The notes: generated from the sequence alone by a model not told the origin. Counted from the stretch's first letter, positions 5,591 to 55,748 are shown. The stretch is 64,000 nucleotides of DNA from an uncultured Candidatus Saccharibacteria bacterium (GCA_964403725.1 CAYOHI010000005.1:3368-67367), one strand, 5' to 3'. Numbers and translations: made by a program.

Positions 5591-6586
5591 TTAATTTAAA
5601 AGATTAATATATTCCCTATTAGCTATTTGTGATGCTTCTCTATAATCCATCCTCTTGCCCATCCTAATATCTAGTAATTCTTCTAAATTCTGGTTAAATT
5701 CTTTTGGATTAGCAGAATTAACTAAATCACGGACAACCTCTTCACTTTCTCGTCCTGTTAAATTAATCAATTCTTCTTCAACATTATCAATTTCTTTTTT
5801 GAGTCTTTTTTCAAGTAATTCTTTTAATACATCTTTAGTTGATTCTCCTTGATTAACTCTTTTAATCATTTCAGAGACCCCTTGATACCTGATATCTTCT
5901 ACGTATTCATCCCATCTGTCTGTTAAATGATCTTCCAATTCGCTTTCAGACCAATCATTTTTCATCATTAAGTATGTTTTTAATAATTTAATATCAACGC
6001 CCCATTTAATTTCTCCTTTCCTCAGTTCGCCTTCTCTGGTCATTTCTGGATTAGATAACGTCTTGATTTTATCAAAAATCATTTCTTCTGGAGACAAGAC
6101 CAGGAATTCCTTATCTCCACTTTTGACTTCTTGTCTTGGGAAATGAGGCAGATCTTCTCTGTGCAAGACATCTATCATTTCATTACTGCCACTAACTTGT
6201 CCTCTTTTTATTCTTTTAGATTCTTTATCCCAGCCGAAATCAGTCATGATTCCATCGTGGTTTTCCAAAGATACACCGATATCAAAATCATTTTTACCGC
6301 CGGCAATCCTTTGTTCTAAGATATTCAAACCTTTGCCTTCTTCTAATTCGTTAAACATCAAGTACATTCCCATGCTGCCTAAGATAATGAATTCCCTATC
6401 TGTTGATTTTTCAATAGCTCCTATTACTTCTTCACAGTGACCAATTACAGTTTCTAATTTAGAACCTTCTGGTGCTTCAATATCATGGCTGGTTGAAGAA
6501 ATTTTTTCTGGGATTTTCTCTTCCTCTATTTGTTCAATAGAATACGGATTAAGCTCTGATTTTTGTTCTGGTGATTCAAATGACAT
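5591..6586 (-). CDS. hypothetical protein (acidic, coiled-coil C-terminus)
   Basis: 331 aa ORF, tightly packed after the upstream gene; no confident motif (ILGSMG...DFDIGV is spaced too far apart for a pol-beta nucleotidyltransferase). Confidence 0.4.
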   Translation of the reverse strand: MSFESPEQKSELNPYSIEQIEEEKIPEKISSTSHDIEAPEGSKLETVIGHCEEVIGAIEKSTDREFIILGSMGMYLMFNELEEGKGLNILEQRIAGGKNDFDIGVSLENHDGIMTDFGWDKESKRIKRGQVSGSNEMIDVLHREDLPHFPRQEVKSGDKEFLVLSPEEMIFDKIKTLSNPEMTREGELRKGEIKWGVDIKLLKTYLMMKNDWSESELEDHLTDRWDEYVEDIRYQGVSEMIKRVNQGESTKDVLKELLEKRLKKEIDNVEEELINLTGRESEEVVRDLVNSANPKEFNQNLEELLDIRMGKRMDYREASQIANREYINLLN

Positions 6587-6609
6587 ATATTGATTATATC
6601 AAAATTAAA

Positions 6610-6659
6610 AGAAGACTGGAAGTGAGCAAATGACCTATTAATTCTCATTCCAGTCTTCT
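6610..6659 (-). terminator. long-stem hairpin terminator (bidirectional in appearance)
   Basis: 12-bp stem agaagactggaa/ttccagtcttct with a T-rich tract on both sides. Confidence 0.55.
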
Positions 6660-10121: not shown

Positions 10122-10514
10122 ATGGAATGCTCATTACAAACCTGCGATGGCAAAATCAACCTTAGAAAAAAGGTCGAAACTAGAGTAAACGGAAGAGAAA
10201 TTGAAGGGTTTGCTTGTAAGGACTGTGGCTGTATTCACAGAACCGTCCCTGTAAAGGATACAAACGATGGAATCGCTTTCCTCGATAACGGAGGAGTTGT
10301 TTTCAAATCACAGTGCCCCGCCTACGGATGCCCTGGAGTGATCAGCACCAGAAAAGTGGTAACTGTTCCGCTCGAGAGCGGTGAACAAAAAGGTAGTCCG
10401 TGTAGTGTCTGTCGGATAATTTGGCGAGGTAGCGAGCCTATTCATGATGACAAATATCAAACTGCTATACTCGGCGAACATGAACAAATTGATTTCCGAG
10501 CTCCCATTCGATAG
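10122..10514 (+). CDS. small Cys-rich zinc-ribbon-like protein (family member B)
   Basis: MECSLQTCDGK ... FACKDCGCIHRTVPVKD ... CPAYGCPG ... CSVC; strong RBS; GC-richer than neighbours; promoter and terminator both present. Confidence 0.55.
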   Translation: MECSLQTCDGKINLRKKVETRVNGREIEGFACKDCGCIHRTVPVKDTNDGIAFLDNGGVVFKSQCPAYGCPGVISTRKVVTVPLESGEQKGSPCSVCRIIWRGSEPIHDDKYQTAILGEHEQIDFRAPIR

Positions 10515-10544
10515 TCTATCTCCTCTCTTGACCTGTGAATTTAA

Positions 10545-10578
10545 AAGGCCACCAATTGAAAAAATTGGCGGCCTTTTA
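10545..10578. terminator. bidirectional intrinsic terminator between convergent genes
   Basis: aaggccaccaatt-gaaaa-aattggcggcctt hairpin flanked by an A-run and a T-run. Confidence 0.7.
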
Positions 10579-10594
10579 CGTTATCTGAATTTCC

Positions 10595-11209
10595 CTACTT
10601 TTTAAACACAAACATCTTGTATCCGATAAAATTCCAACCCATGGCTACCATCGATGCTACTATGGCCCCGATGTTACCCCATTGTCCAGCATTCAATCCA
10701 AATTGCGGTCCTACTAAATTAACAATACCTGAAGCCACTATATTGTTAACTATAAGCCCAACAACACTAACCAAGAAAAAAGTTAAAAATTGCTTGCCTG
10801 TATCTTTCTCCTTGCTGCTAAAAGCCCAATTCTTGTTGAATAAGTAACTGTTAATATTAGCAACCAAAAAGGAAATTCCTTTAAAAACTGAATACCAATA
10901 CCCTACTGCTATTCCTGAGAAAAATATTAATAAATTCAAAATTCCAATATCAACCAAGAAATTAAAACCACCTACCAGGACGAATTTACCAAATTGAAAA
11001 AGGGATTCTTTTTTCTGACTAATAAGGGAGATTAATTTAATCCAAATTAGGCAAAAAATGGGAAAGAATATTGGCAGAATCCAATACAGATGGCCTTGCT
11101 TAATAAATTCAACATTCAATTCCAAATTATTAACCATTAGAATTAGCAACCAAGCTGATATCTCGCCTATAAAAAACGTTATTAACCAATCTTTTTTAGT
11201 TAATTGCAT
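10595..11209 (-). CDS. GtrA-family membrane protein (polysaccharide synthesis/flippase-associated)
   Basis: FGKFVLVGGFNFLVDIGILNLL is the GtrA signature; 4-5 TM helices; start is 2 nt after the upstream stop. Confidence 0.7.
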   Translation of the reverse strand: MQLTKKDWLITFFIGEISAWLLILMVNNLELNVEFIKQGHLYWILPIFFPIFCLIWIKLISLISQKKESLFQFGKFVLVGGFNFLVDIGILNLLIFFSGIAVGYWYSVFKGISFLVANINSYLFNKNWAFSSKEKDTGKQFLTFFLVSVVGLIVNNIVASGIVNLVGPQFGLNAGQWGNIGAIVASMVAMGWNFIGYKMFVFKK

Positions 11210-11211
11210 AT

Positions 11212-13737
11212 TTAAAACTCTGGAGCTTTTTCAATTTCAAGCCCAAGTCCTTTCTTAAGTATTAATGTATCTCTTCTTTTTAATTTGTTTTCTAATAATA
11301 AAGTAGCTGCCTGGTTTTCAACAATATCCTGAATTACTCTTTTTAAAGGCCTAGCTCCATACAAGGGATCGTATCCCTTTTGAGCCAATTCCTCAACAGC
11401 ATCTTCTTCTGATTTAAAGAAAATTCCCTTTTCCTCCAATTTCTTTTTAAAACCATTTAAAAATAGTTTAGTAATTTTGTTCATATTATCCATACTCAAA
11501 GCCTTAAACAAAACAATTTTATCAAATCTGTTTAAAAATTCAGGCTTAAAGTATTCCAACAGGACAGTTTGCTTTAACTCCTTGTCGATTTCCTCATAAG
11601 TCGATCCACCACTAATTTTCTTCTGGACGAAATGAGTGCCGGCATTGGAGGTGGCGATAATGATGGTATTGGTAAAATTAATAGTTTCTCCTGAAATATC
11701 AGTCAATCTTCCGTCATCCATAACTTGTAAGAATAGGTTTAGAATATCCGGATGGGCTTTTTCAATTTCATCTAAAAGAATCATGGAATATGGCTGTCTT
11801 TTAACAGCCTCTGTTAAATACCCCTTATTAGTATCACTCTCAGTCCTCGAACCAATTAATCTTCTCAATCCTCTTTTTTCTTGGTATTCAGACATGTCTA
11901 AGCGAATCATTCTTTTTTCATTGCCGAAATACACTCTGGCTAATGATTTAGCTGTCTCAGTTTTACCCACGCCAGTTGGCCCCACAAAAAGAAAATTAGC
12001 AATTGGTTTTTTCCTGCCTTGTAATTCCAATCTTGAGCGCCTCATGGCATCAGCAATGCCTTTAACTGCTTCTTCTTGGTTAATTACCCTTTTATGGATT
12101 AAATTTTCTAAATTAAGTAATTTTTCTTTTTCTGTTTCTTCAATTTCCCCCAAAGGAACTTTTGTTTTTTCTGTAACCAATTCAATAATATCGCTGTCTT
12201 TGATATAGGCTCCGGCCCCCATCTGTCCTCTAACCTTGTGACCTGCTTCAGTTAACAAATCCATGGCCTTAGCTGGCAAAGCTTTGCCATAGACATATCG
12301 GTCAGCCAAATTAATAGCTTGTTCTAAAGCATCAGCTGAAAAGAAAATATTTAATTCTTTTTCAATAACATATATTTTAGTAATCAAGATTTGCCATAGA
12401 ATATTCTCTGGTGGCAAAGGCACATTAACCCGACTAAGAGATCTGCCTAAAATTTTACCTTCAATTTTAGAAGCATAATTATCAGCTGTAGTTGTGCCGA
12501 TGAAATAGAAGGCACGTTTATCTAAAGCTGATGATAAGATTTCTGACATATCAATACCTCCAGCTTGGGTTTTGAGACCTGATAGACTATCAATATTTTC
12601 AACTACTAAAACAATATTACCCGCTCTATTAACTTCAAAAACAATCTGTTTTAAATATTCTTCACCTTTTTCTCTAGCGCCGTCTAAACTGACAAGACTT
12701 CCTAAATCAAGCTCAACTAATCTTTTATCCTTTAAAAACTTAGGCACATTCTCCGTAACCATCATCTGAGCTAACTTTTTCAAAATTGCTTTTTTGCCAA
12801 TAGCACTTTCACCAACCAGAACTACGCCAATTTTGCCAGCACTAAAGAAATTAAAGGTGTCGCTAATTTCTTTTTGTCTGCCCATAACAATCTCAAATTG
12901 ACCTTGTCTCGCCAAATATGTCAAATCCCGACTAACCTTATCAAGTGTTGGCGTTAAAACAGCCGTCATAGTTCTATTCAATTTTCCTTTAGGTTTGAAA
13001 AATCTTCGCCAAGAAAAAGACTTTTCGTTCTTTTTAATTTCTCTTTCTAATTGAGACCATATAACGACTTTTTCAATTTCCTCGGGTCTAATTCCAAATT
13101 CATCAAAAATCATGCCAACCAAATTTCTTTGTTGACTAATAGCCCAAAGCAAATCCAAAGCCCCAATTTGACTCTCTTGTTTTTCTAAACAAAATCTATA
13201 CGCATCAACAAATATTTCTTTGAAATCTGAGGCCATTTTAGGACCTAGAAAAGCCACTCCTTTGTCATCCACAAAAAATGAAGAATTCTCTAAAATGCTT
13301 TTAGTTTTTTGATTAACAAGATTAGGATCACAATCTAATCTCTTAAGAATTTTTTTAAAATTCTTTTGTTTTAAAAATGAATTAAAAAGATGGATTGGCC
13401 TTAGTGAGCGATATCCTTTACGATAAGCAAAAAGCCAAGCTCTTTCTAAAGATTTCTGAGCTGAGTTATTCAAAAACAAAGAAACATCAGTTTCTTCCTT
13501 AAACACTTTAATCCTATCAATCCTCTCTTTCTTCCTTTCTAGAATATAGATAAGAAACATGTCAGTTAAAAGAGAAAGATAAAAAACAGCATCATAGCCA
13601 ATTAATAAGGCCCATAAACCATAAATTCCAAAGATTATTAAAAAGAAAAAAAGAACCCAACTTAAAACTCTTCTCAATTTCCTTTGAGTTATTCTCAATA
13701 AATTCAAATGAGGGTTGAAATATAAGTTTGGTTCCAT
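11212..13737 (-). CDS. membrane-anchored Clp/Hsp100-family AAA+ unfoldase (ClpC/ClpA-like; D1 degenerate, D2 canonical)
   Basis: N-terminal two TM helices (VLSWVLFFFLIIFGIYGLWALLIGY...), Clp_N-like LERAWLFAYRKGYRSLRPIHLFNSF, D1 Walker A GESAIGKK and Walker B VVENID (non-canonical), D2 FLFVGPTGVGKTETAKSLA, ILLDEIEKAHPD, IIATSNAG, PEFLNRFD; start taken at the ATG at 13735-13737, which is 2 nt after the upstream stop (the ORF track extends to 13818 with an overlap). Confidence 0.8.
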   Translation of the reverse strand: MEPNLYFNPHLNLLRITQRKLRRVLSWVLFFFLIIFGIYGLWALLIGYDAVFYLSLLTDMFLIYILERKKERIDRIKVFKEETDVSLFLNNSAQKSLERAWLFAYRKGYRSLRPIHLFNSFLKQKNFKKILKRLDCDPNLVNQKTKSILENSSFFVDDKGVAFLGPKMASDFKEIFVDAYRFCLEKQESQIGALDLLWAISQQRNLVGMIFDEFGIRPEEIEKVVIWSQLEREIKKNEKSFSWRRFFKPKGKLNRTMTAVLTPTLDKVSRDLTYLARQGQFEIVMGRQKEISDTFNFFSAGKIGVVLVGESAIGKKAILKKLAQMMVTENVPKFLKDKRLVELDLGSLVSLDGAREKGEEYLKQIVFEVNRAGNIVLVVENIDSLSGLKTQAGGIDMSEILSSALDKRAFYFIGTTTADNYASKIEGKILGRSLSRVNVPLPPENILWQILITKIYVIEKELNIFFSADALEQAINLADRYVYGKALPAKAMDLLTEAGHKVRGQMGAGAYIKDSDIIELVTEKTKVPLGEIEETEKEKLLNLENLIHKRVINQEEAVKGIADAMRRSRLELQGRKKPIANFLFVGPTGVGKTETAKSLARVYFGNEKRMIRLDMSEYQEKRGLRRLIGSRTESDTNKGYLTEAVKRQPYSMILLDEIEKAHPDILNLFLQVMDDGRLTDISGETINFTNTIIIATSNAGTHFVQKKISGGSTYEEIDKELKQTVLLEYFKPEFLNRFDKIVLFKALSMDNMNKITKLFLNGFKKKLEEKGIFFKSEEDAVEELAQKGYDPLYGARPLKRVIQDIVENQAATLLLENKLKRRDTLILKKGLGLEIEKAPEF

Positions 13738-13739
13738 GA

Positions 13740-14090
13740 TTAAAATAGTAATTTCCAAATAGTGAATATTGGTAAAGTAACCCAGGCAAACAGAATAAAA
13801 ACCCAAAGCAAAGCCCAAAGAAACATTAAAAACAAACGAAAAACAAGATGAATAAAATGACTGGCCAAACTTAAGACATATGCATCCCAGCCCTTTTGGC
13901 CATACATAGGTTTAAAGAAATTTTTAATAAAGATTACTAGAGCCAAATTCTGCCAACCATCTTTAATCCTTAAAAAACAAAAAAGAGCCGCTTTTTTTAA
14001 ACCACGACTATACCACCAAACTGGAAAATACAAAACTTCAACAACTGTGTCTAAGAATAAATCTTTTAAAATTATCTTGTAACTTCCCAT
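13740..14090 (-). CDS. small polytopic membrane protein, hypothetical
   Basis: 116 aa; stop TAG of the upstream gene is immediately followed by its ATG (TAGATG); 3 predicted TM segments. Confidence 0.5.
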   Translation of the reverse strand: MGSYKIILKDLFLDTVVEVLYFPVWWYSRGLKKAALFCFLRIKDGWQNLALVIFIKNFFKPMYGQKGWDAYVLSLASHFIHLVFRLFLMFLWALLWVFILFAWVTLPIFTIWKLLF

Positions 14091-16574
14091 CTATTTCACC
14101 TCCATATTTGGGTTAGCTGACTGAATTGGAGCAGCTGTTTTGTACCTAGTAGCAATTTCTTGTTCAACTACTGCCTTATCCCGACCGTACTTTAACCGAG
14201 CCAATTCTTTAATAGCTTGGGCTACTTCCGGAAAACCTTTTTCAGGCGGATAGGTCGCAATATTGAATGGCGTAGAAGTCTGATTATTAATTATTAATTT
14301 AACATGAGCATTAAAATTATCAACATTAATTAAGTCATTAGCACCAAAAACAGGTTCGAATTGCTTAATCAAAAATTCAGCATCTTCAGCCCCCACTCTA
14401 AAAGCAACTTGAGAACCTACATTGCCAAACACAGCTTCTTTAATATTATCTGACAATTGACCAATGAACTGATGAGCAGCAATTAAGCTTAACCTATATT
14501 TCCTAGCCTCAGAGAGAATAGTCGAAATACTATCCGTTGAAAAGTTCTGGAATTCATCCATGTATAGATAGAAATCTTGACGCTGCTCTTCAGGCATATC
14601 TACTCTTGAAAAAGCAGCCATTAAAAGCTTGCCTGTAACAATCATGCCTAAAAGACTACTATTAATATCCCCTAACCTTCCTTTGCTTAGATTAACTAAC
14701 AAAATCTTACGCTCGTCCATGATTTTCCTAAAATCAAGAGAGCTTTTAGCCTGACTAACAATCGGCCTCATATAGTCATTGGAAATGAAAATACTGAATT
14801 TAGAAGTAATGTATGGCACCATATTCTGTAAAGAAGCATCGCCTCCTGCTTTAGCAGCTTCTTTTTCCCAGAAATTCTTAACTACCATACTTTGGCATTT
14901 AGCTAACAACTTAGCCCGATATTCTTTATCAGCTAGAACCTTAGGAACTTCCAATAAGGTAACATCTTCACTAGGATCATCCATTAAAAGCAATAAAGCA
15001 TTGCGAGTATATTGTTCGAACATTGGTCCGCCAGTATTCTTTAAATCATACAATCTATCAAAGATGCTCATCAATTCGTTAACGGCAAAAGTTTTTTGCT
15101 CTGGATATTTAGTGTCATATTCCAGCATATTTAAAGCCAGAGGTCTTTCTAAATCAGAGGGATCAACTAGAACGACATCTTCAACTCTTTCTCTTGGAAT
15201 TAATTCCATAATTTTATCTATCTCACCATGTGGATCCAAAACGCCAATACCTTTACCTGCCCTAATATCTTGAACAATGAGATTGCGCAAGAAAGCTGAT
15301 TTACCAGTTCCCGTTTGTCCAACAATGTATAGATGGCGACGGCGATCATTATCTGTCATTCGAACAACTGATTCGACTCCTCGGTAAACATTTTTGCCTA
15401 GAATAATGCCTTCTTGAGGCATGTTAGCCGGCAAATCAGCTGACTGAGATTTCATGAATTTAACTTTAGGCGTATTAACAGTAATGCTTGGAAAATGGAA
15501 AAGACTGGTTAATTCTTCAGTATTTAAGATGGTTGATTGTTTTCTATTGAATAATCTGAAAGAAAAGTCATAAATTAATTTCTTTAAATTAGATCCTTTG
15601 AGACGAATTGATTTTATTTGATTCAAACTAGGTGCATTAAACTGAACAAAGGCACTTTCCAAATGTCCAAGTATTTGATCGGCTTTTTCTTGGTCTTCCG
15701 AAGAAACTAATAATCTAATATTAACTTCAAACCCAGGTTTACTAGCCTTATTTTCAAGTGATTTTATAATTTCTTCCTGTAAAGGAGTCAAAGAAATATT
15801 ATTTAATTTTTCTTTGTCTTTGTCTTTTTGGGAAGTTCCTTTAACTGCAAGCTCAACATTTTTTCTGACTATTCCCTTGCTAGCTTCTGAATTAGCTGCT
15901 CCAAAATCTTTACCACCTTGCATTTCTTTAGCGATTCTCAAACCCTGTTTAGCCCAGTTTTTAGACTGAGTGGGTTTAATAACGATCTGAATTGAAGCAC
16001 CTTCGCCTTCTTGCTGTAATTTAGACAAAGTATTAGTAATTTCATTCAATGGATCCATTTCCAGACTCTGATATGTTTTAAAAGGCAAAGAATAGGTTTT
16101 GGCTAGTCTTAAATATGAGCCAGCCACTACCCCTTTAGGATTAAAAATATTGTAATCATTTACTTTTTCAACTGAAGCTTCAGAATAGAAACCATGGACT
16201 TGTTTTTCAACAACTGTCTCATATTTGCGAGGTATGGACATATAGAAAGATATTTCTTCTCCTATTTGTGGTGTAGCAATTTCAAAAACAATATGCGGCT
16301 GGCCGTAAAAAAAGGTATCTTTAGTTTCCTTAATATTACTGAGACTACTATAGAATTGTTCCATAACTGAAATGATTTCTTTTTCGCTTTTGGCAGTCTC
16401 ACCTTCTTCTTTTTTATTTTTCTTAGGCAAAGTAATTAAAAACAAACTCATATTCAAAGAGCGGGTTACCTGGCCTCTTTTTTTACGAGCCATAACAAAC
16501 ATCAAAGCGCCTACTCCAATAATTCCAAGAGCAAGTAAAACAACGATACCTATTAGTATTTGATTTAAGTCCAT
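14091..16574 (-). CDS. HerA/FtsK-superfamily ATPase, VirD4/TraD/TraG-like coupling-protein homolog (DUF87-like) with N-terminal TM anchor
   Basis: N-terminal TM; Walker A RRHLYIVGQTGTGKSAFLRNL, Walker B FYLYMDEFQNF, C-terminal ARKYRLSLIAAHQFIGQL resembling the TraD/TraG C-terminal motif. Confidence 0.6.
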   Translation of the reverse strand: MDLNQILIGIVVLLALGIIGVGALMFVMARKKRGQVTRSLNMSLFLITLPKKNKKEEGETAKSEKEIISVMEQFYSSLSNIKETKDTFFYGQPHIVFEIATPQIGEEISFYMSIPRKYETVVEKQVHGFYSEASVEKVNDYNIFNPKGVVAGSYLRLAKTYSLPFKTYQSLEMDPLNEITNTLSKLQQEGEGASIQIVIKPTQSKNWAKQGLRIAKEMQGGKDFGAANSEASKGIVRKNVELAVKGTSQKDKDKEKLNNISLTPLQEEIIKSLENKASKPGFEVNIRLLVSSEDQEKADQILGHLESAFVQFNAPSLNQIKSIRLKGSNLKKLIYDFSFRLFNRKQSTILNTEELTSLFHFPSITVNTPKVKFMKSQSADLPANMPQEGIILGKNVYRGVESVVRMTDNDRRRHLYIVGQTGTGKSAFLRNLIVQDIRAGKGIGVLDPHGEIDKIMELIPRERVEDVVLVDPSDLERPLALNMLEYDTKYPEQKTFAVNELMSIFDRLYDLKNTGGPMFEQYTRNALLLLMDDPSEDVTLLEVPKVLADKEYRAKLLAKCQSMVVKNFWEKEAAKAGGDASLQNMVPYITSKFSIFISNDYMRPIVSQAKSSLDFRKIMDERKILLVNLSKGRLGDINSSLLGMIVTGKLLMAAFSRVDMPEEQRQDFYLYMDEFQNFSTDSISTILSEARKYRLSLIAAHQFIGQLSDNIKEAVFGNVGSQVAFRVGAEDAEFLIKQFEPVFGANDLINVDNFNAHVKLIINNQTSTPFNIATYPPEKGFPEVAQAIKELARLKYGRDKAVVEQEIATRYKTAAPIQSANPNMEVK

Positions 16575-16584
16575 ATGTTACCCC

Positions 16585-17019
16585 CTATTTTTGTTCCAGT
16601 TTCTTTGCTTCAACTAATTTTTCGTAAAGATCATTAGTCAAGGCATCATGAAATTCATCCAAGATATATGGATTATTAGCTTTCTTAGCTTCCTCAATCG
16701 CTTCAGTTAGGCCTTTGTCAAAGGCTATTTGAGTTAACTGCTCAACCCGCTTTTTATCAGCTGGTTCCTCAGCTGGCTGAGTAGGCTTAGCTGGAGTAGC
16801 TGGGCTTGAATCAGCTACTGGCGCTGAAGCTGTTGGAGTAATTTCTTTAGCTGACTGAAGAACTTCTGGTTTAGACACTTCCTCAACCTTTTTTTCAGGC
16901 TGAATTGGAGCTTCTTTTTTTATTGGTGGAGCCTCTTGAGGTTGGCTTGGTTGTTCAGCTGCCGCAGCTGGCCCAACACCTTCCTCAATTGGTTCATGAT
17001 ATTTATCTCGTTCTGTCAT
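16585..17019 (-). CDS. Pro/Ala/Glu-rich low-complexity protein, hypothetical
   Basis: 144 aa ORF; first gene after terminator 17078-17100; 10 nt upstream of the ATPase gene. Confidence 0.45.
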   Translation of the reverse strand: MTERDKYHEPIEEGVGPAAAAEQPSQPQEAPPIKKEAPIQPEKKVEEVSKPEVLQSAKEITPTASAPVADSSPATPAKPTQPAEEPADKKRVEQLTQIAFDKGLTEAIEEAKKANNPYILDEFHDALTNDLYEKLVEAKKLEQK

Positions 17020-17077
17020 ATTATATATATTTTACCACAAAAATATGTTCTTAACCAAAAACTTATCCCCAAACAAA

Positions 17078-17100
17078 AAACCGTTACAAAACGGTTTTTC
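17078..17100. terminator. intrinsic terminator
   Basis: aaaccgtt-acaa-aacggttt hairpin with flanking A/T runs. Confidence 0.6.
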
Positions 17101-17125: not shown

Positions 17126-19600
17126 TTATTTAAAATCTCTCATTTGAACAATCATTTTCATAACAAATTTCTTAGCAGGTTCTACTCTATTTACGTCCGT
17201 TATGTCGTAAAGCTCATTAACTCTCTTAATTAATTCTAGTTTCTTTTTAATAATCCATTGACTTTCAGGAACTCTATTAGAATAGTATTCTACAAAATCA
17301 CTTGGTTTGATTTGACGATTAATTAGAAGATCCATTACTTTTTTAGGACTTTCATTGAATGTTTTCTCTATTATCCCTTGGACAGGATCAATACTTTCAT
17401 TTTGAACCTCTGGAGATTCTGGGAGTATAGTATCTTTCCAAAATGCATCTCTTTCATCCCACCATTCATCTGGGATTGGCTGAACCCTTGTTTTTGAAAC
17501 CTCTTCTGGAACGTCAAATTTTTCACTTATTTCTATATCATCATACCCAGCAACACTTTCTTCTAACCCTTTGGCATGGACAACTTTTTCCCAAGTTTCC
17601 AGCTTAATATTATTAACATACCTCAAGGCGCCTTTTTTCAGAGCCCCTTCATCCCAAAGCTCATCAGCATGACTATCTAATGTTTTTAAAACTTCATTAA
17701 ATTTAACATGGTCTTTAATTTCTAAAGTATTCTTTTTAGGATTCCAATTCACAGCCTCTGAAAGTTCACTGGCTTTAATTCCAATTGTATCCTTGCCTGA
17801 TAATATTCTAATTAAATTCTGTGAAATATTCAGGCTTTTAGCAGCATGTTTTTCAGTAAAATTACCAGCAGCATCTACAGGATTTTCCATGTTATTTATG
17901 GCAATCATTTGGAGAGTTCTTTCTAAATATTTAGGAGCTCCTTGTTTTCCTAATTCTAATGTAAAGTTTTCTTTAAGGCCTCTTTTACTTGATACTTCCT
18001 CTATATGCTCTCTTATTCTAGGTAATGATTCTTTTAGGCGGCTGATCATACGTTCTTTCATATTTCTAAGATTTTCTAAATGTTCTGAATCTATAGGCTT
18101 CCCTTCTGATCTCATCTTTAATAAACTGTTTATTTCCGAATCCACACGATTGTATTCTCTTTCAAGGTTTGCTAATCCAGATCCAAGATCGTTTCTCATT
18201 TCTCCTAAAGGAACTTCTCTAAGTAAAGCAAAGGCATTTCTAATTGTTTCTCTTTGTTCTGATGATTTTACTTCCCATTGCTCTTCATTTATCCTTAATC
18301 TTTCTCCTGCTTCCTTCATACCCTGCAAAAGTTCTTTAGTTCTATTAGATCCTTCATGTACAGGAGAAGTAATATCTTTTGAAGTAAAATACTGATCAGT
18401 AAATTCTCTTATGGCATAACCTGCTGTGGCAAAGCCAGCAGATATGAGGGCGCCTTTTACTGTTTCGCTAAGTAAATACTTCCCTTGTGATTTTTCTTTT
18501 TCTTTCTCTTTTTCTTCGGCAATTGATTTGAGTCTTCTCTCCTCGAATGGAATGATAATATCATCTTCATTTATTCTGACAAATCCTTTACTAAGAGTTT
18601 GCATTAAATCGTACTGTCTAGATATTCTCTCTTCGCTTTCGCCAAAATCAATTAGACCTCTTTCTAATTTATCCGTAAGCCAATCTGTACTCATTCGGAG
18701 TGATTTTTTATAGGCGAATAATTGTCCCGGAGTGAATTCTTTGCCCTGTTTTGTCTTGCCTTCTTCTAATTTTTGGATTGTTTTCTTGATCTTATTACTT
18801 ACCTTTTCAGCTTCTGAATATTTGCTAATTACTCCTTCTCTAATTGCTGATGCCTGCTCTTTTTCTAGGTCTTTTATTTTCTTCTTCTTTTCATTTATTT
18901 TAGATTTATCTAACCCTCCCTTCTCTATTTCAGCATTCAAGACTTTTATTCTATGGTTCCTTTTCCAGTATTCATCAACTTCATCCATTTTATCTCCTTT
19001 GCGAGACATTTTTTCTTTTTCTACGAGTGATTCTTTAGCTCTTTTCCTGGAAATGAAACCACCTAGACCTGCTGCTGCTAAAGGTAAACCAGCAAAACCA
19101 ATCATACTCATTGTCAAAGACCTGGCTGCAAAACCAGCTGCCATATACATTCCTCTTTCTGTAGCTATGTCTTTCATGGCATGAAGCCAGGCTTTTTTGT
19201 TTTCAGCATTAATTAATTGTTTTTCAACTTCAGGGTGAGTGTTTAAAAATTGATTTAAAGTAATCTTGTTTTCAATCTCACTTAAATCAAGCATTGCTTC
19301 TTTTCTGCCCAGCTCTGCTTCTTTGAGGTTTAATAGGTCTTTTTTGGTATTTTCAAATTTTTCCTTTGCTTTCTCATATTTCTTTCTCTCTTTGCTAGTG
19401 GCTGTAGAATATGACCATTCTTTAGGTATTCGGCTGAATTCAGTAGCAATCCTATTAAATGATTCGACTGTTTCTTTTTGTTCTGGATTTCCAGCAGTAG
19501 CATACTGTATTTCTAGCTTGCCATCTATGACTTCTACTTCTGGGCCAAATTCACTCATTCCTTTAGTTAATTGTTTTAAAATATCTCCATGTACTTCCAT
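17126..19600 (-). CDS. large (824 aa) Lys/Glu-rich coiled-coil protein with two hydrophobic segments, hypothetical
   Basis: Long ORF; hydrophobic MYMAAGFAARSLTMSMIGFAGLPLAAAGLGGFI and ALISAGFATAGYAI segments; no recognisable enzymatic motif. Confidence 0.55.
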   Translation of the reverse strand: MEVHGDILKQLTKGMSEFGPEVEVIDGKLEIQYATAGNPEQKETVESFNRIATEFSRIPKEWSYSTATSKERKKYEKAKEKFENTKKDLLNLKEAELGRKEAMLDLSEIENKITLNQFLNTHPEVEKQLINAENKKAWLHAMKDIATERGMYMAAGFAARSLTMSMIGFAGLPLAAAGLGGFISRKRAKESLVEKEKMSRKGDKMDEVDEYWKRNHRIKVLNAEIEKGGLDKSKINEKKKKIKDLEKEQASAIREGVISKYSEAEKVSNKIKKTIQKLEEGKTKQGKEFTPGQLFAYKKSLRMSTDWLTDKLERGLIDFGESEERISRQYDLMQTLSKGFVRINEDDIIIPFEERRLKSIAEEKEKEKEKSQGKYLLSETVKGALISAGFATAGYAIREFTDQYFTSKDITSPVHEGSNRTKELLQGMKEAGERLRINEEQWEVKSSEQRETIRNAFALLREVPLGEMRNDLGSGLANLEREYNRVDSEINSLLKMRSEGKPIDSEHLENLRNMKERMISRLKESLPRIREHIEEVSSKRGLKENFTLELGKQGAPKYLERTLQMIAINNMENPVDAAGNFTEKHAAKSLNISQNLIRILSGKDTIGIKASELSEAVNWNPKKNTLEIKDHVKFNEVLKTLDSHADELWDEGALKKGALRYVNNIKLETWEKVVHAKGLEESVAGYDDIEISEKFDVPEEVSKTRVQPIPDEWWDERDAFWKDTILPESPEVQNESIDPVQGIIEKTFNESPKKVMDLLINRQIKPSDFVEYYSNRVPESQWIIKKKLELIKRVNELYDITDVNRVEPAKKFVMKMIVQMRDFK

Positions 19601-19661: not shown

Positions 19662-21407
19662 CTAATACTGCGCCAAAATCTGCCTAGTAATTTTTGGTTT
19701 TTGGTTTTTGAGGTCTTCTTTATATTCCTTAACTGATTCTTCTTGGATTCTGCCTAAGATTAATTGTTTTAAGTTTTCTAAGACAAGTGATTTTTGACCT
19801 TCTGATAGATTATTGAAACCTTCAATATTTTCTAAATCGTTTTCGGAAATCCCAAACTCAGAAAAATCACCAGGTTTTTCTTTTGCAGATTTAGATGACT
19901 GTGGTTCTGATTCTGGCCCAGATTTAGACTCCGTAGGATTTTCTTCATTCTCTTCTTCCTGTTTTGGTTCACCTCTTCTTTCAGCTTCAGCTTCCTCTTC
20001 CTCGAATATATCGTTATATGCCCTTAATACTTCTTTTGGAAATTTGCTACGTAATCCTCTATTTATTTCCATTAACTTTCTTGCTTTTTCTTTTTCATCC
20101 ATCTCTCGATCATTAAGTATCTCATCTCGCTCCTTAAGCAATCTTTCTAATTCTTCTTTTTCCTCTTCGCTTAAATTTATTTCTGGCTCTGGTTCTTTTT
20201 CTGTTTTAGATTCTGCAGATTCTTCTTGCTGCTCTGGTTCATCTTGTCTTCCTATAAAGGATTCCATTTGACCACCTACTCTTTCATCCCTTTCTTGTTG
20301 AGTTGCATATTTCTTTAATTCTTCGCCCAGTTCTTCGGATTTATCCCTTGGCGGGGTCTCTCTTTCTATGAAAGATTCCATGAGCTTTCCTTTTTTAGTT
20401 TCTGGATTTACATATTCTGGTTCTTTGTATTCCTCTTTTCCTTGTTGAGTTTCGTTTCCTTCTGATGTTTTACTTAGTTGCCTCGCCTCCCACTCTTTTT
20501 TAGCTTTTTTATAGAAAAATTCTTCATTTCTATACTGATCAGTATTCTCTAATCCTCTTTCTTCCATTCGCTTCATAGCAGCTTTATGATTGATCATATT
20601 TTCTAAATCTTTGTTTCCGAATACCTCTTCAGATGTTAATCCTTCTTCCTGCATTGCTTTGTAGATGTATTTTGCACGACCTTCTTTTTTTGGCTCGGGT
20701 TCTTTGGGTTCAGGTTCAGGGGTTGGTTTCTCTTCAGGATTATCTGATGCAGATTCCAAAAGATCATCTACTTCTTTTTGCGAGGTTAAATCTTCTTCAG
20801 GAGTTGGTTTTAGAGATTCCGGTTCCTCTTTTGGCTGTTCTGTTGCTTTGCCTTCTATTCTATTAAAAACTTGGTCTACATTATCTCTCGCTTGCTCTAT
20901 TTTTTCTTCTTTGCCTGGTTCGACGATATCATCGTCAGTTAATTCGATAATATCATTATCTTGCTCTATTGATTCTACTCCTCTTTCTTGTTCTGTTTTT
21001 TCCTTATTTTCTGGATTAACAACATCAGTTAATTCAATTATATCATCGTCGTCTGCTTGTTCCTGTTTTACTTTCATTCTTTCCTTGGCTTCTTTGGCAT
21101 GAGCTATTCTTTCTTTCTTTTCTTTTTCTGTTGCTTTTTGTTTTTGTATTTCTCTCCTTCTTTCTTTTACTTTTCTCATGACGTTTTCATCAGCTTCTTT
21201 AGCTGATTTTACTATCTTTGGTCCTTTTTCAGTATCAGGATCATCTACAACATCAGTTAATTCAATTATTTCCTCTTGTTCTGCTGGTTTAGCAGCTTCT
21301 TGTTTTCCTTGATCGCTAAAAATACTAGCCATTGATTCACTGGCTCCTTCTAAAAGCTCTTCTTCAGTGATCGTTTCTGGTTTGTTTGTATTGGGTTTCT
21401 CTATCAT
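19662..21407 (-). CDS. highly acidic repeat protein (three IIELTDVV/IIELTDDD repeats), hypothetical
   Basis: 581 aa ORF; repeat units EEIIELTDVVDDPDTEKG / DDIIELTDVVNPENKEK / DNDIIELTDDDIVEPGKEEK; C-terminal PKxEP repeats. Confidence 0.55.
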   Translation of the reverse strand: MIEKPNTNKPETITEEELLEGASESMASIFSDQGKQEAAKPAEQEEIIELTDVVDDPDTEKGPKIVKSAKEADENVMRKVKERRREIQKQKATEKEKKERIAHAKEAKERMKVKQEQADDDDIIELTDVVNPENKEKTEQERGVESIEQDNDIIELTDDDIVEPGKEEKIEQARDNVDQVFNRIEGKATEQPKEEPESLKPTPEEDLTSQKEVDDLLESASDNPEEKPTPEPEPKEPEPKKEGRAKYIYKAMQEEGLTSEEVFGNKDLENMINHKAAMKRMEERGLENTDQYRNEEFFYKKAKKEWEARQLSKTSEGNETQQGKEEYKEPEYVNPETKKGKLMESFIERETPPRDKSEELGEELKKYATQQERDERVGGQMESFIGRQDEPEQQEESAESKTEKEPEPEINLSEEEKEELERLLKERDEILNDREMDEKEKARKLMEINRGLRSKFPKEVLRAYNDIFEEEEAEAERRGEPKQEEENEENPTESKSGPESEPQSSKSAKEKPGDFSEFGISENDLENIEGFNNLSEGQKSLVLENLKQLILGRIQEESVKEYKEDLKNQKPKITRQILAQY

Positions 21408-43254: not shown

Positions 43255-45483
43255 TTACCGCTCTTCTACGCCCATTTCAGCTCCCTCATCAACAAATACC
43301 TCTCTTGGCTTGGCCCCATCAGCAGGTCCAACTATGCCTTGTTCCTCTAAGATATCCAATAACCTAGCTGCTCTGGCATAACCCACGCGCAAACGACGCT
43401 GTAATAAGGAAGCAGAAGCCTTGCCAGCCTGAACCACAACATTCTTAGCCTCACCTAATAATTCATCCTCTGTATCGCCTCCTGCCGCATTATCGCCAAA
43501 ATTTAGCCCTGGAGCAGGCTGTCCTTGGGTAACTTGGGAAGCTGTGGTTACTTCTTCCATATATTCAGGTTCAGCTGCACCTTTTAGATAATTAGTTACT
43601 TTGCCAACTTCGCGCTCTGAAACATAGGCTCCCTGGACACGACGCGGCCTGGCTGAATTCCCTGCTAGGAAAAGCATATCTCCATTGCCTAATAGTTTTT
43701 CTGCTCCAGCCATATCCAAAATTGTCCTGGAATCAATCTGGGAAGCTACCTGAAAGGCCATACGTGAGGTAATGTTTGCTTTAATCAGCCCAGTAATGAC
43801 TTCAACTGACGGACGCTGGGTTGAAACAATCAAATGAATACCAATAGCCCTGGCCATCTGGGCTAATCTAACAATTGAAGCTTCCACTTCTCGGCCATAG
43901 GTAGACATCAAGTCAGCTAATTCATCGATAACTACAACAATATATGGCAGGGCTTCATCTTCAAAATCCTTATTCTTCTTCGCATTGCGAGCCACCCAGC
44001 TGTTATAACCACCAATATCTCTCTTCCCTGCTGCTTGGAGAACGCTAAAGCGCCTTTCCATTTCGCTAACTGCCCAGCGCAATGCTCCAACAGCTTTGTC
44101 TGGCTGGACAATAACTGGTGAGATCAAATGAGGAATTGACTCATAGGCCGAAAGCTCTACTCTCTTAGGATCAATCATAATCATCTTCATATCCTCTGGG
44201 AAATTCCTGTATAGAAGACTGGTAATGACATTGTTCAGAGCCACTGTCTTACCAGTACCAGTTGCTCCAGCTACTAATAAGTGAGGCATTTTAGATAGTT
44301 CTGCAAAGATAGGATTGCCTGCCACATCTCTTCCCAAAGCAAAAGTCAATCTTCCAGCTGATTCCTGGAAAGCTGGCCTTTCCAGCAATGAACGCAGCCT
44401 GACAGTAACAATAGACTTGTTGGGAATCTCAATTCCTACTAAAGATTTGCCTGGAATAGGCGCTTCAATCCTTAAAGGATGAGCTGCTAGAGCCAAAGAT
44501 AAGTCGTTTTGCAAACCTGTTATTTTAGTTAATTTAATACCTTGGGCCGGGCGCAATGTATATTGCGTTACTGTTGGACCAACATTAACTTCAGCCATTT
44601 CTACATTAATGCCAAAATTCTCTAAAGTTCCTTTAATGATATTGATATTAGCCTTAATATCTCCAGATGTAGGATGACCCTTATCTTTTTCTAAATAATC
44701 GAGTGTTGGAAGCTTGTAATTGCTTTTTTGCTTAGCCAGTACCGTAGCCTTAACCCTCTCAGCAGCAGCTTTGGTTAAGGGCGCTGCTCCAATAACCTCC
44801 TTTGTTTCATCCTGCTTTTTACTAACTACTTTATTTTCTTCTTTCTTTTTAATCTTAATGCCTTCCTTAGCTTTATCCTTAATCTTTGACCAAAGACCTG
44901 GCTTTTTCTCTACTGGCTTGGCTTCTGGTAAAGGAACTACTGGTTTTATCTCTTCCTCTTCTTTCTTGCTTGGCAGCAAGGAAACGTTAAAGGTAATCAA
45001 AAACGAGATTATTAAAAGACCTATTAGAACAACTAGGCTAGCCCAAAAGCCAAAAAAGTTTTCTAAAGGATACCCTAGAGCCATACCCAAATATCCGCCA
45101 CCCATGCCATTAGAAGCAACTACATGGAAGAAACCCAAGACACTCAATACAAAAAGCAAAATGCCAATGAAAATAGTGGAATACATTGGCTTTCTCTTTT
45201 TTTGCAAATTAAGGCGAGGCATTAGGATAGCCAAACCGATTAGAATGAAAGTAACAGCTACAAGAAAGAATCCTTTGCCAAAAAGTGATTTACTAGCCTT
45301 TAGGAAGTATTGCCCAAAGGATCCAGCAACACCAAAAAAACTCAAGACACTGATCATTGCCAGAGTAAAAGAAATTACCACTAGAATCCCCTTTTTAGTA
45401 TCAGAATGGAGAGTTGGCTTTTTCTTTGCGCTTTTCAAACTCTTCTTTTTTCCAGAACTTTTCTTTTTAGGCATAATATACAA
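43255..45483 (-). CDS. ftsK: DNA translocase FtsK/SpoIIIE
   Basis: N-terminal 4 TM helices, linker, motor domain with HLLVAGATGTGKTV, IVVVIDELADL, and a C-terminal gamma domain wHTH. Confidence 0.9.
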   Translation of the reverse strand: MYIMPKKKSSGKKKSLKSAKKKPTLHSDTKKGILVVISFTLAMISVLSFFGVAGSFGQYFLKASKSLFGKGFFLVAVTFILIGLAILMPRLNLQKKRKPMYSTIFIGILLFVLSVLGFFHVVASNGMGGGYLGMALGYPLENFFGFWASLVVLIGLLIISFLITFNVSLLPSKKEEEEIKPVVPLPEAKPVEKKPGLWSKIKDKAKEGIKIKKKEENKVVSKKQDETKEVIGAAPLTKAAAERVKATVLAKQKSNYKLPTLDYLEKDKGHPTSGDIKANINIIKGTLENFGINVEMAEVNVGPTVTQYTLRPAQGIKLTKITGLQNDLSLALAAHPLRIEAPIPGKSLVGIEIPNKSIVTVRLRSLLERPAFQESAGRLTFALGRDVAGNPIFAELSKMPHLLVAGATGTGKTVALNNVITSLLYRNFPEDMKMIMIDPKRVELSAYESIPHLISPVIVQPDKAVGALRWAVSEMERRFSVLQAAGKRDIGGYNSWVARNAKKNKDFEDEALPYIVVVIDELADLMSTYGREVEASIVRLAQMARAIGIHLIVSTQRPSVEVITGLIKANITSRMAFQVASQIDSRTILDMAGAEKLLGNGDMLFLAGNSARPRRVQGAYVSEREVGKVTNYLKGAAEPEYMEEVTTASQVTQGQPAPGLNFGDNAAGGDTEDELLGEAKNVVVQAGKASASLLQRRLRVGYARAARLLDILEEQGIVGPADGAKPREVFVDEGAEMGVEER

Positions 45484-53174: not shown

Positions 53175-55748
53175 TTACTCTTCTGCCGGAGCTACTTCTG
53201 GATTTGGAATTGAAGTTTCTTCAGTTCCTCCTCCGCCCAGCTGCTGAATCTTAGCCTTAATATTCTCGTCATTAGGCATCATTTGCTCTAGAATCTGATA
53301 CTGAATCAAAGCATCTTCAATTCTATTATCTGATTCATAGGAAAGAGCCAAGGCATAACGGGCATTAGCATACTGTGGAGTGATGATAACGGCTTGTTCA
53401 AACATCGGAATCGCTTCCTTTGTTCTCTCAAGGTTGAAATACAACCTGCCAGTCTGGAAATATATTTCAGTGGCTGCCCCAGCAAAATCTGATCCTCGCT
53501 GGAAGCTAACACCCCTTAATTTTTCCAAAATGGCTTCCATTTTCTCCAAAGCTATCTCTAAATCGCCTTTTTGCTCATAAACCAAAGCTAATTGGACATG
53601 GGCATCAAGATAGTTATCCTTCAGTTCGACAGAGCGCTGACAATGGCCAATGGTCTCATCCCAGTCCTTTTCTTCGCTAATCAGGTTCAAACGACACCTT
53701 TCGCGATAGAAAAACGGATTATTAGGCTCTAATTCAGCCGCTTTGGCAAAAGCTTCTAGGGAAAACGGCAATGTTCCCCCTACCAGACCCCTGGCATCAC
53801 GGTAAATTGCGCCTAAATTCTCCCAAGCAGCTACTGAATTAGGGCTTAGAGTCGTCGCTAACCTGGCCTGCTGGATAGAACCGGCTGCCAGAGCTTGCAA
53901 GAGCTGTACATTCTGCTCTGCTTCCGGCTTATTCGCCTCAGCCCAAGCTGTAATCAGATATGCTTGGGAAAGAGCTCTTCGGTAGCTTTCCTGGTAGTTG
54001 TTCAGGATAACGCTGCGCTCCAATTTAGCCACTAATTCTTCGTTAGTTTCAACCGGATCTAGGAATTTGACATCCGCCCAGTAGAATCTTCCTCCTAAAT
54101 AGAAGAAACCTGCCAGAGCGAAGACTAAGATGAGCAAAACTACGTTTAGAACCAATCCGATTTCAGGCATCTTATCGAAGGAAAAACTGATCTTTTTGAA
54201 GGGCTGGTTCTGAACTCCCTGCCAAACTACTACTCCTAAGGCCATAAAGAACCAGAAATAGAAGGAAAGGACCGTATTTTGCATATACACGAATTGTGCC
54301 ACCAAAAGCGATAACCAAGCCAAAATTAGAGGGAAAACCGATATCGGATGACGCTTATCCGATATCGGATAAGTGGAAGATAGGGCTTTTAAGCGCTTTC
54401 TGCTCAAGAAAACCAGTCCAATAAGCAAGAATACCCCTAAAATCATGATATATGAGAGAATTCCCAAAATACCCATGGTTCCAATAGTCTCTAAGATATG
54501 GTTCGGACCCCTGTCAAACCTGACATTCCAGAAATCAGTATTGTTAAACTCTACTGGCTTGAACTTCGAGAAATCTGCAATATATGTCCCTGGACCTGAT
54601 CCAAGAATCGGATAATCCTTCAAGCTCTGCCAAGCAACTGTTCTTGATACCTGGGAATCAAGGATCAATTCCTGCGGCAATGGAAGCAATTGGTTCAAAT
54701 CGCTCAAAAAACCAATCTTACCTGGCAGATTAAACCAGAAAAAACCGGAAATTAGGAGCAAAATTATTGGCAGAGTTAATAAGTTAACTCTTTCTTTGAA
54801 TAACCTGGTCCAAAAGGCAATAACTAGCAAAATGAACATAGTCAGGCCCAGAATTGCCCAAGCAGCAGAGAAATTGATCAAAAGCAGCAAAATCAATGAT
54901 GCTACTAGGAATAGAACCTTGCTTCTCATTCCAGAAGCGCTACCTTTGGATTTCTTCCAAAACATCAGTAATCCCAATATTTTCTTAAAGAATCCTTTCT
55001 TAGTAGCCCCTAGGTCACCTTTAGCAATGCTTTTCTTTGGTACTTGGCTTAAGATCAAACCAACTACCAAGCTCATAGCCATAGCTAAGAAAATAGCCAG
55101 GCCCTCTAGAGAGCCACTGACCGTGTTAAAGGAACGGAAAGTCATCATTTGGGGAAGACCCGGAATCTTGCTCCAAATATTAAAGACGGACAGATAAGCT
55201 GTAACTACAACTATCCAGCTGGAAATCAAGAACAAGCTATAAACCTTTTCCAAAGAAAGACCCCAGATTGTCTTGATTGTTCCCCCACTTGAGGAACTTG
55301 GCTTTACGCTCTTCACATTATTAACCACCACAAAGTACATAACTATCAAAGCCAAGGCTCCGATAACCGAACCTGAGAAGCGGCCGTAGAATCCAAACCA
55401 AGAAGATATTGAATCAATAGAAAAAACTGCACTTAGGACTAAGATCAAAACAAAGACCAGAATCCAAACATCAAGTGCAGTTCGACGAAAGAATAGCTTC
55501 TTGCGGACAACCGCCAATTTGCCCAGCCAAGCCATAAAGGCTATGCTGACCAAAAAGATTAATAAGTATTGCTTGTTAAACTCATATGCTTCGACTGTGA
55601 AAGGCAGCCAAAACAAAGGCATGAGAAAAACTAAGGCGTAAAGCGGAAACTTAATCAAGAAATTGATTATTTTACGCATATTTTTTACCACCCTGCTCGT
55701 AGTTAAGGAATCACAGAAATTATGGAATCTCTGATGACTTGTAGTCAT
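53175..55748 (-). CDS. O-antigen ligase/polymerase-like (Wzy_C) polytopic membrane protein fused to C-terminal TPR repeats
   Basis: >10 TM helices in the first ~600 aa; C-terminal ~250 aa have TPR-like repeats (AIYRDARG..., LALVYEQKGDLEIALEKM, YALALSYESDNRIEDALIQYQ). Confidence 0.55.
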   Translation of the reverse strand: MTTSHQRFHNFCDSLTTSRVVKNMRKIINFLIKFPLYALVFLMPLFWLPFTVEAYEFNKQYLLIFLVSIAFMAWLGKLAVVRKKLFFRRTALDVWILVFVLILVLSAVFSIDSISSWFGFYGRFSGSVIGALALIVMYFVVVNNVKSVKPSSSSGGTIKTIWGLSLEKVYSLFLISSWIVVVTAYLSVFNIWSKIPGLPQMMTFRSFNTVSGSLEGLAIFLAMAMSLVVGLILSQVPKKSIAKGDLGATKKGFFKKILGLLMFWKKSKGSASGMRSKVLFLVASLILLLLINFSAAWAILGLTMFILLVIAFWTRLFKERVNLLTLPIILLLISGFFWFNLPGKIGFLSDLNQLLPLPQELILDSQVSRTVAWQSLKDYPILGSGPGTYIADFSKFKPVEFNNTDFWNVRFDRGPNHILETIGTMGILGILSYIMILGVFLLIGLVFLSRKRLKALSSTYPISDKRHPISVFPLILAWLSLLVAQFVYMQNTVLSFYFWFFMALGVVVWQGVQNQPFKKISFSFDKMPEIGLVLNVVLLILVFALAGFFYLGGRFYWADVKFLDPVETNEELVAKLERSVILNNYQESYRRALSQAYLITAWAEANKPEAEQNVQLLQALAAGSIQQARLATTLSPNSVAAWENLGAIYRDARGLVGGTLPFSLEAFAKAAELEPNNPFFYRERCRLNLISEEKDWDETIGHCQRSVELKDNYLDAHVQLALVYEQKGDLEIALEKMEAILEKLRGVSFQRGSDFAGAATEIYFQTGRLYFNLERTKEAIPMFEQAVIITPQYANARYALALSYESDNRIEDALIQYQILEQMMPNDENIKAKIQQLGGGGTEETSIPNPEVAPAEE

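Follow-up and report, generated by a model that had tools for sequence, protein, structure and literature searches.

A probable composite locus of three separable units around a coupling-protein-family ATPase and its small upstream partner on a Portnoybacteria chromosome

The window analyzed here is a stretch of 64,000 nucleotides (nt) from an uncultured Candidatus Saccharibacteria bacterium (GCA_964403725.1, CAYOHI010000005.1:3368-67367). It harbors five closely spaced minus-strand genes (positions 10,595 to 17,019) that encode, in order of transcription, a protein of 144 amino acids (aa), an 827-aa ATPase of the type IV coupling protein (T4CP) family, a 116-aa membrane protein, an 841-aa membrane-anchored ClpC-like AAA+ protein and a 204-aa GtrA-family protein. 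The original prediction read these genes as one membrane translocation module. Comparison with related loci points instead to a composite locus, in which three separable units are grouped around the ATPase and its small partner, a reading to which we assign a probability of about 0.6. The five-gene set is a subclade-specific juxtaposition, and the biologically meaningful unit is the small partner together with the ATPase. The lifestyle of Patescibacteria, which are dependent on host cells, is reflected above all in their envelope machines. Orphan VirD4-type ATPases occur in nearly every Patescibacteria genome; one of them can now be described, with a predicted VirB4-like domain, a motor and a partner that is sometimes fused to it.

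Neighboring genes were compared by tblastn, clustering and hidden Markov models (HMMs) in 80 species-level loci and in metagenome contigs; 73 of the loci are informative for the partner. The C-terminal domain of the 144-aa protein, searched as an HMM, is encoded directly upstream of the ATPase in 40 of the 73 and is fused to the ATPase N-terminus in 7, giving rise to proteins of 911-925 aa. tblastn adds 7 loci with a small partner, so that the two genes are adjacent or fused in about 54 of 73. In six of the seven fused forms the partner domain replaces the transmembrane (TM) helix of the ATPase, the remaining one (L024) being ambiguous due to a run of Ns. The small upstream protein is the recurring partner of the ATPase. 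The original prediction described it as rich in P, A and E, which agrees with the composition of its first 90 residues (18% P, 16% E, 16% A), but missed this role. These 90 residues are probably disordered, and the C-terminus is a helical domain of about 55 aa with the consensus ...G[IL]..A..V...L.DP[YH].LD.FHD.L...

Of the 80 species-level loci, only L007 has the Clp gene and the 116-aa gene after the ATPase. Three metagenome contigs (L087, L094, L096) have the same order at 63-70% ATPase identity, and the five-gene order is confined to a Portnoybacteria subclade with 63-72% ATPase identity; relatives at 56-61% lack both genes after the ATPase. The ATPase/Clp junction tolerates insertions, since in L087 (63% ATPase identity) an AbiEii/DUF6922 toxin-antitoxin pair is located there (5769-6654). 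Distant homologues of the TM-anchored Clp (38-39% identity) and homologues of the 116-aa protein are encoded in two distant Patescibacteria, in the regions L088 4496-9748 and L089 6632-9709. A 121-aa homologue of the 116-aa protein lies directly upstream of the Clp gene in L089 (BLASTP E = 3e-13) and about 2 kb upstream in L088 (BLASTP E = 8e-25), and no ATPase is found within 7 kb of the TM-anchored Clp in either locus. This joint occurrence away from the ATPase suggests that the 116-aa protein and the TM-anchored Clp are an independent pair, inserted at this site.

The original prediction took a gene order that relatives do not share as its own refutation, and this is the outcome here. The comparisons make a single dedicated module very unlikely, in which the Clp protein unfolds the substrate and the ATPase pushes it through the membrane, with GtrA and the 116-aa protein as membrane components. 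Such a module would fit the tight, hairpin-bounded junctions and the order shared by L007, L096, L094 and L087; moreover, many Clp matches share their longest-contig figures with ATPase matches, and an unfoldase feeding a translocase is mechanistically plausible. Tight spacing, however, is the genomic norm: in L094, dnaX is likewise just 2 nt from GtrA, and in the window 23 of 51 same-strand junctions are no wider than 10 nt, with 55 of 66 genes on the minus strand, so that four successive tight junctions are just mildly improbable (roughly 0.04). The spacing is real, yet it is weak evidence for a functional link. As a machine, the combination of ATPase, unfoldase and GtrA is a lineage-specific juxtaposition, and it calls for caution when tight packing is interpreted in streamlined genomes.

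The ATPase belongs to the T4CP family. Profile matches and structural models give it an N-terminal domain that resembles that of VirB4 (DUF8128), followed by a P-loop motor like that of TrwB/VirD4. The P-loop domain contains a Walker A motif (GQTGTGKS, residues 419-426), a helical insertion (491-597) and a Walker B motif (DEFQN, 673-677), and the residues of both motifs do not vary among 39 diverse orthologues (45-72% identity). Pfam matches on this domain comprise T4SS-DNA_transf (5.5e-8, 32.5 bits, cut-off 20.1), DUF87 (5.7e-8), TrwB_AAD_bind (28.3 bits) and TraG-D_C (1.2e-4, 22.5 bits, cut-off 22). The NCBIfam models SXT_TraD (1.6e-11, 43 bits, threshold 366) and CD1115 VirD4-like (9.6e-10, 38 bits, threshold 250) match far below their thresholds. 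Among PDB sequences the best solved relative is TrwB (E = 5e-8), at the Walker A and Walker B regions. The Walker motifs align with those of TrwB/VirD4 (PDB 1E9R, 1GL6) and DotL (6SZ9), which share the helical insertion between them. TrwB/VirD4 proteins carry a pair of N-terminal TM helices and are not known to have a VirB4-like domain at the N-terminus. In the window ATPase, one hydrophobic helix lies at aa 6-28. Basic residues (ARKKRG) follow this helix, and by the positive-inside rule most of the protein would be in the cytoplasm. The family is a large one and comprises 7,446 clusters at 50% identity (E <= 1e-30).

The DUF8128 domain alone gives an AlphaFold2 (AF2) model with pLDDT 79 and pTM 0.79. 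All 14 Foldseek matches of this model in the PDB at E <= 1e-3 are TrwK/VirB4 chains, the best with E = 1.3e-6, probability 1.0 and TMq 0.42-0.47, whereas the next match has E = 6e-3 and probability 0.28. The window ATPase therein resembles TrwK/VirB4 of R388 (PDB 7O42, 7O43, 8RTD), with which it appears to share the two-domain architecture and the modeled N-terminal fold. In contrast to TrwK/VirB4, the N-terminal domain has no sequence-level similarity (its profile finds no VirB4 match among PDB sequences), the protein has no VirB4-family Pfam match and reaches 16.5 bits against a threshold of 590 with NCBIfam VirB4_plasma, and the VirB3, VirB6 and VirB8 Pfam families are missing among the ATPase neighbors. 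Some homologues (P0354, P0352, P0347, P0348) are extended at the C-terminus by 450 to about 1,200 aa. The added stretches are P/A-rich and of low complexity, with short recurring motifs (PPIGAPPVD, ITDI[TM]GGR) and a composition like that of the disordered N-terminus of the 144-aa partner; no Pfam domain is found in these extensions, in homologues of up to 2,006 aa.

Homologues of the ATPase are encoded on 252 plasmids of Bacillus, Streptomyces, Clostridium, Sulfolobus and haloarchaea. On two Bacillus plasmids the homologue ('DUF87 domain-containing'; WP_121549396.1 on NZ_CP032854.1, WP_144625398.1 on NZ_OX419581.1) heads a Tcp-like conjugation operon, directly before the relaxase and upstream of TcpC/D/E/F-like genes. 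The profile of the 39 orthologues aligns with this relaxase-adjacent ATPase over both domains (hhalign probability 100%, E = 1.7e-44, 671 columns; by tblastn, 24% identity, 91% coverage, E = 6e-40). By contrast, the downstream TcpF/VirB4-like ATPase of the same plasmid aligns at Walker A only (probability 3%). As the profile fits the relaxase-adjacent ATPase and not the TcpF-like one, the label 'coupling-protein-like' of the original prediction is right, and the TM anchor that it proposed agrees with the N-terminal helix. Unlike the Bacillus plasmid gene, the gene in the window lies on a chromosome, away from any relaxase or type IV secretion system (T4SS) gene in its vicinity; its product, moreover, starts with a TM helix and is paired with a small soluble protein. 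On sequence and modeled fold, the family is a monoderm-type T4CP lineage with a VirB4-like N-terminal domain that it would have retained. A Clostridium sporogenes plasmid (L097, 4672-7472) carries a TrbC/VirB2-family gene that overlaps the start of the ATPase homologue, and no other T4SS-annotated gene is found nearby on this plasmid.

Phages encode the family as well. PHROG phrog_5156 matches at full length (2.3e-93, residues 62-812), and homologues occur in 61 phages of Bacillales (Bacillus, Geobacillus), among them phage G (gp156, E = 2e-49, 92% coverage). In phage G, gp155, which is annotated as VirB-like, directly precedes gp156 (L098, 2291-6433). SPP1 gp32 is homologous over its full length (probability 99.2%, E = 1.5e-19, 706 columns) and has small proteins encoded directly upstream. 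This early protein is dispensable for the phage, and HHpred relates its C-terminus to TrwB, VirB4 and FtsK; together with the upstream small membrane proteins gp31.1 and gp31.2 it has been proposed to form a translocon (Godinho et al., PMC6316719). In contrast to the window ATPase, gp32 lacks a TM segment. The membrane proteins proposed as its partners, gp31.1 and gp31.2, show no relationship to the 144-aa protein; HMM searches find the latter unrelated to SPP1 gp31, gp31.1, gp31.2 or their 0105phi7-2 counterparts.

The distribution on plasmids and phages and the full-length PHROG match could suggest that the ATPase is a gene of a defense system or mobile element (HerA/MADS-like, or a prophage or integrative-element remnant) rather than a host core function, and an AbiE toxin-antitoxin pair adjoins it in L087. 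This explanation is highly improbable. The window is core chromosome, with rpoB, rpoC, ftsK, a PBP2-type transpeptidase, two aminoacyl-tRNA synthetases, dnaX and tRNA-Gln, and many of the 80 loci have homologues of the flanking housekeeping genes, namely PMT_2 and POTRA on the upstream side and GtrA and dnaX on the downstream side. The window shows neither an integrase nor a relaxase nor another defense partner, the GC content of the five-gene region resembles that of its own flanks, and the family is near-universal in the phylum (PMC12102498). PADLOC matches to mad8 (2.5e-12) and HerA (1.3e-7) are confined to the P-loop region; a defense role drawn from these matches was rejected, because the core-chromosome context is conserved. 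A genuine FtsK is encoded at 43255-45483, and therefore the 827-aa protein is not the FtsK of the cell. Close ATPase homologues carry the names Candidatus Portnoybacteria or Patescibacteria, and the window contig is also present in JGI and ENA metagenomes.

Orphan VirD4-type ATPases in Patescibacteria are already known, since they are reported in PMC12102498 (Quinonero-Coronel et al., 2025). According to that study, 2,918 of 3,035 Patescibacteria genomes (about 96%) encode 5,713 VirD4-type homologues, 148 of which are near virB4, and VirB4 itself is found in 2,417 genomes. The 827-aa ATPase most likely belongs to these homologues, with which it shares the phylum, the annotation class and a location away from virB4; its close homologues are named 'type IV secretory system conjugative DNA transfer family protein' by NCBI. 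In its accessible part, PMC12102498 provides counts and describes neither a DUF8128/VirB4-like domain nor the small partner, fusions, neighborhood or plasmid and phage links. In the literature searched, DUF8128 is unmentioned, and DUF87 and Patescibacteria are never combined. For Southlakia epibionticum, PMC12102498 reports a non-essential VirD4-type T4CP homologue and an essential T4SS, and it raises exaptation as a possibility.

In the composite reading, the locus would be a single transcription unit, probably, that joins three functionally separable units on a core Portnoybacteria chromosome. The first would be the widely recurring pair of the soluble 144-aa protein and the membrane-tethered ATPase. 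The second would consist of the 116-aa membrane protein and the membrane-anchored AAA+ protein, presumably derived from ClpC and inserted after the ATPase in one Portnoybacteria subclade only. The third, GtrA, would more plausibly act in envelope glycosylation with the nearby GT-C (PMT_2) glycosyltransferase. The ATPase may form a membrane-associated ring, a motor or receptor that uses ATP to pass DNA or protein, as its macromolecular substrate, on to a channel in the membrane, with the 144-aa protein as a putative adaptor or regulatory subunit. Most likely, this channel would be a chromosomal Patescibacteria T4SS encoded elsewhere in the genome, or else another channel. Partner binding, ring formation and co-occurrence with T4SS genes are testable predictions of this model.

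Several observations weigh against the composite reading. The conserved order in the subclade leaves room for a lineage-specific functional link between ATPase and Clp. No gene for a substrate, relaxase, T4SS or channel is found in the 64-kb window, and no relaxase or T4SS channel genes are named in the inspected neighborhoods of relatives. The small partner is not universal, because 13 loci carry an unrelated small protein (family c9) in its position. The modeled likeness to the VirB4 N-terminal domain is at the level of fold only (TM-score about 0.45). The full-length AF2 model, for which Foldseek ranks full-length VirB4 first and matches DotL at E = 1e-3, is mediocre (pLDDT 67, region 681-776 poorly modeled). 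Furthermore, the T4CP homologue reported as non-essential in the one genetically tractable Patescibacterium, whose T4SS is essential (PMC12102498), argues against obligatory coupling to a T4SS.

This last point also favors an autonomous, T4SS-independent machine that would have been exapted from a conjugative coupling protein and might act, for example, as a DNA translocase, a segregation factor or a membrane regulator. T4CP homologues occur in more genomes than VirB4, and the majority are encoded at a distance from virB4; in about 25 of the 80 loci, dnaX is found no more than about 4 kb downstream of the ATPase; minimal pairs without a full T4SS exist, such as the TrbC/VirB2 gene and ATPase of C. 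sporogenes or gp31.1/31.2 and gp32 of SPP1; and lineages with the fused form lose the TM helix. Against it, synteny with dnaX may only reflect conserved order in streamlined genomes, and the closest plasmid homologues are in classical conjugation operons beside the relaxase. We regard this putative machine as a serious alternative, though rather unlikely. A bolder version, which we consider doubtful, is that the partner and the DUF8128 ATPase form a Patescibacteria-wide T4SS-independent motor, domesticated from a conjugative coupling protein and moving, for instance, DNA or proteins at the epibiont-host interface. In one Portnoybacteria subclade, the ClpP-independent membrane-anchored Clp unfoldase and the 116-aa protein would have been recruited into its operon for substrate preparation.

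Within the composite locus, the 841-aa protein has two hydrophobic N-terminal segments, read from the sequence, followed by a Clp_N domain (precomputed Pfam) and by AAA_2 (1.7e-53) and ClpB_D2-small (1.4e-21) matches. The closest solved relative is ClpC (Staphylococcus aureus 6EM8, Bacillus subtilis 3J3S; E = 1.2e-125), which shares Clp_N, two AAA+ modules and D2-small, and D2 is canonical. These matches bear out the original prediction of a membrane AAA+ Clp unfoldase. In contrast to ClpC, D1 is degenerate (Walker A GKK rather than GKT, Walker B VVEN rather than FIDE), hydrophobic N-terminal TM segments are present, and both the M-domain and the VGF ClpP-docking loop are lacking. The ClpC loop 'FAGFGG' aligns to 'IS--GGS', and none of the 110 homologues printed has the tripeptide [LIV]-G-[FL] in its aligned loop. 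Most of these 110 Patescibacteria homologues, down to 37% identity, share the traits of the window protein. Judging from the motifs, D1 would have lost activity and only the second ATPase ring looks catalytic, and the most plausible role of the protein would be that of a ClpP-independent membrane-associated unfoldase. The homologues apparently constitute a Patescibacteria-wide family of membrane-anchored ClpC-like AAA+ proteins, in which the D1 Walker B has E-N or D-N and no link to ClpP is evident; a conserved membrane protein of 116-121 aa recurs in their vicinity.

GtrA, which the original prediction also identified correctly, matches GtrA_DPMS_TM (PF04138; 1.4e-20, 74 bits against a cut-off of 26) over residues 75-202. 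A GtrA homologue is found downstream of the ATPase in 13 other loci, making it an occasional neighbor.

The layout of the five genes agrees with the original prediction in coordinates, junctions (gaps of 10, 0, 2 and 2 nt) and hairpins at both ends, as seen from translation of the open reading frames (ORFs) of the window and from folding energies (Table 1). The gap between the 144-aa gene and the ATPase carries a GGGGGT Shine-Dalgarno site, the ATPase/116-aa junction is TAGATG, and the next two junctions are TAA-tc-ATG and TAA-at-ATG. The Clp gene could alternatively start at a TTG at 13818, giving 868 aa instead of the 841 aa from the ATG at 13737. The upstream hairpin folds with dG -19.7 kcal/mol (z -3.9) and its core stem is followed by UUUUUUGUUU; the downstream hairpin folds with dG -23.1 kcal/mol (z -5.6). 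For each of the two, 0 of 200 shuffles fold equally well. A consensus terminator scan of the window lists neither flanking hairpin, and the match counts of the consensus promoter and terminator scans equal the shuffle expectation. As the original prediction stated, VirB4 is not encoded nearby: no window ORF of at least 580 aa matches a VirB4 family.

Table 1. Features of the five-gene locus and its boundaries, in positions of the window.
Feature	Position	Strand	Basis or remark
144-aa small partner protein	16585..17019	-	P/A/E-rich N-terminus and helical C-terminal domain
827-aa T4CP-family ATPase, entire gene	14091..16574	-	Pfam, NCBIfam, PDB, hhalign, Foldseek
N-terminal TM helix of the ATPase, aa 6-28	16491..16559	-	Sequence; modeled helix over residues 3-40
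DUF8128 domain, aa 33-392	15399..16478	-	Precomputed Pfam PF26449; predicted VirB4 N-terminal domain-like fold
P-loop translocase domain, aa ~393-815	14130..15398	-	Pfam, NCBIfam, TrwB match
116-aa small membrane protein	13740..14090	-	Recurs near TM-anchored Clp
841-aa membrane-anchored ClpC-like AAA+ protein	11212..13737	-	Clp_N and two AAA modules
204-aa GtrA-family membrane protein	10595..11209	-	Pfam GtrA_DPMS_TM
Hairpin and U-run, 3' of the upstream 824-aa gene	17075..17099	-	Likely terminator, 5' boundary of the unit
Strong hairpin between GtrA and the convergent 130-aa ORF	10542..10578	-	Possible bidirectional terminator, 3' boundary

The 144-aa gene has no Shine-Dalgarno site; in the region 17019-17045, TATAAT abuts its ATG and TGgTAAAAT is located about 12 nt upstream. 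These elements may mark the start of a leaderless or near-leaderless transcript. At the other end, a Cys-rich 130-aa ORF on the plus strand (10122-10514), with several CxxC-like motifs, is convergent with GtrA. It is missing from all 80 related loci, and relatives have dnaX directly after GtrA.

Upstream of the unit, 17126-19600 encodes an 824-aa protein that matches no family and by eye is largely charged and helical, with hydrophobic stretches near aa 150-185 and 385-405. In many relatives this upstream position is likewise taken by a large protein, with lengths from 700 to more than 1,400 aa, but these proteins are unrelated in sequence. jackhmmer retrieves one homologue of the 824-aa protein (L029) among 56 loci, and because of this the conserved unit cannot be extended upstream. 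DUF5663 proteins occur upstream in 10 of the 56 loci; by hhalign, the 144-aa family, c9 and DUF5663 are mutually unrelated. Two genes upstream of the unit, 19662-21407 encodes an E/K-rich protein of 581 aa with three copies of DIIELTD and no family match. The 144-aa, 116-aa, 824-aa and 581-aa proteins have no match in Pfam, NCBIfam, PHROGs or PADLOC. Elsewhere in the window, 62135-63946 encodes a 603-aa protein with a Peptidase_S74 domain (an endosialidase/tail-fiber intramolecular chaperone), unusual for a bacterial core region, and 53175-55748 encodes an 857-aa protein that joins an O-antigen-ligase (Wzy_C) membrane domain to C-terminal TPR repeats.

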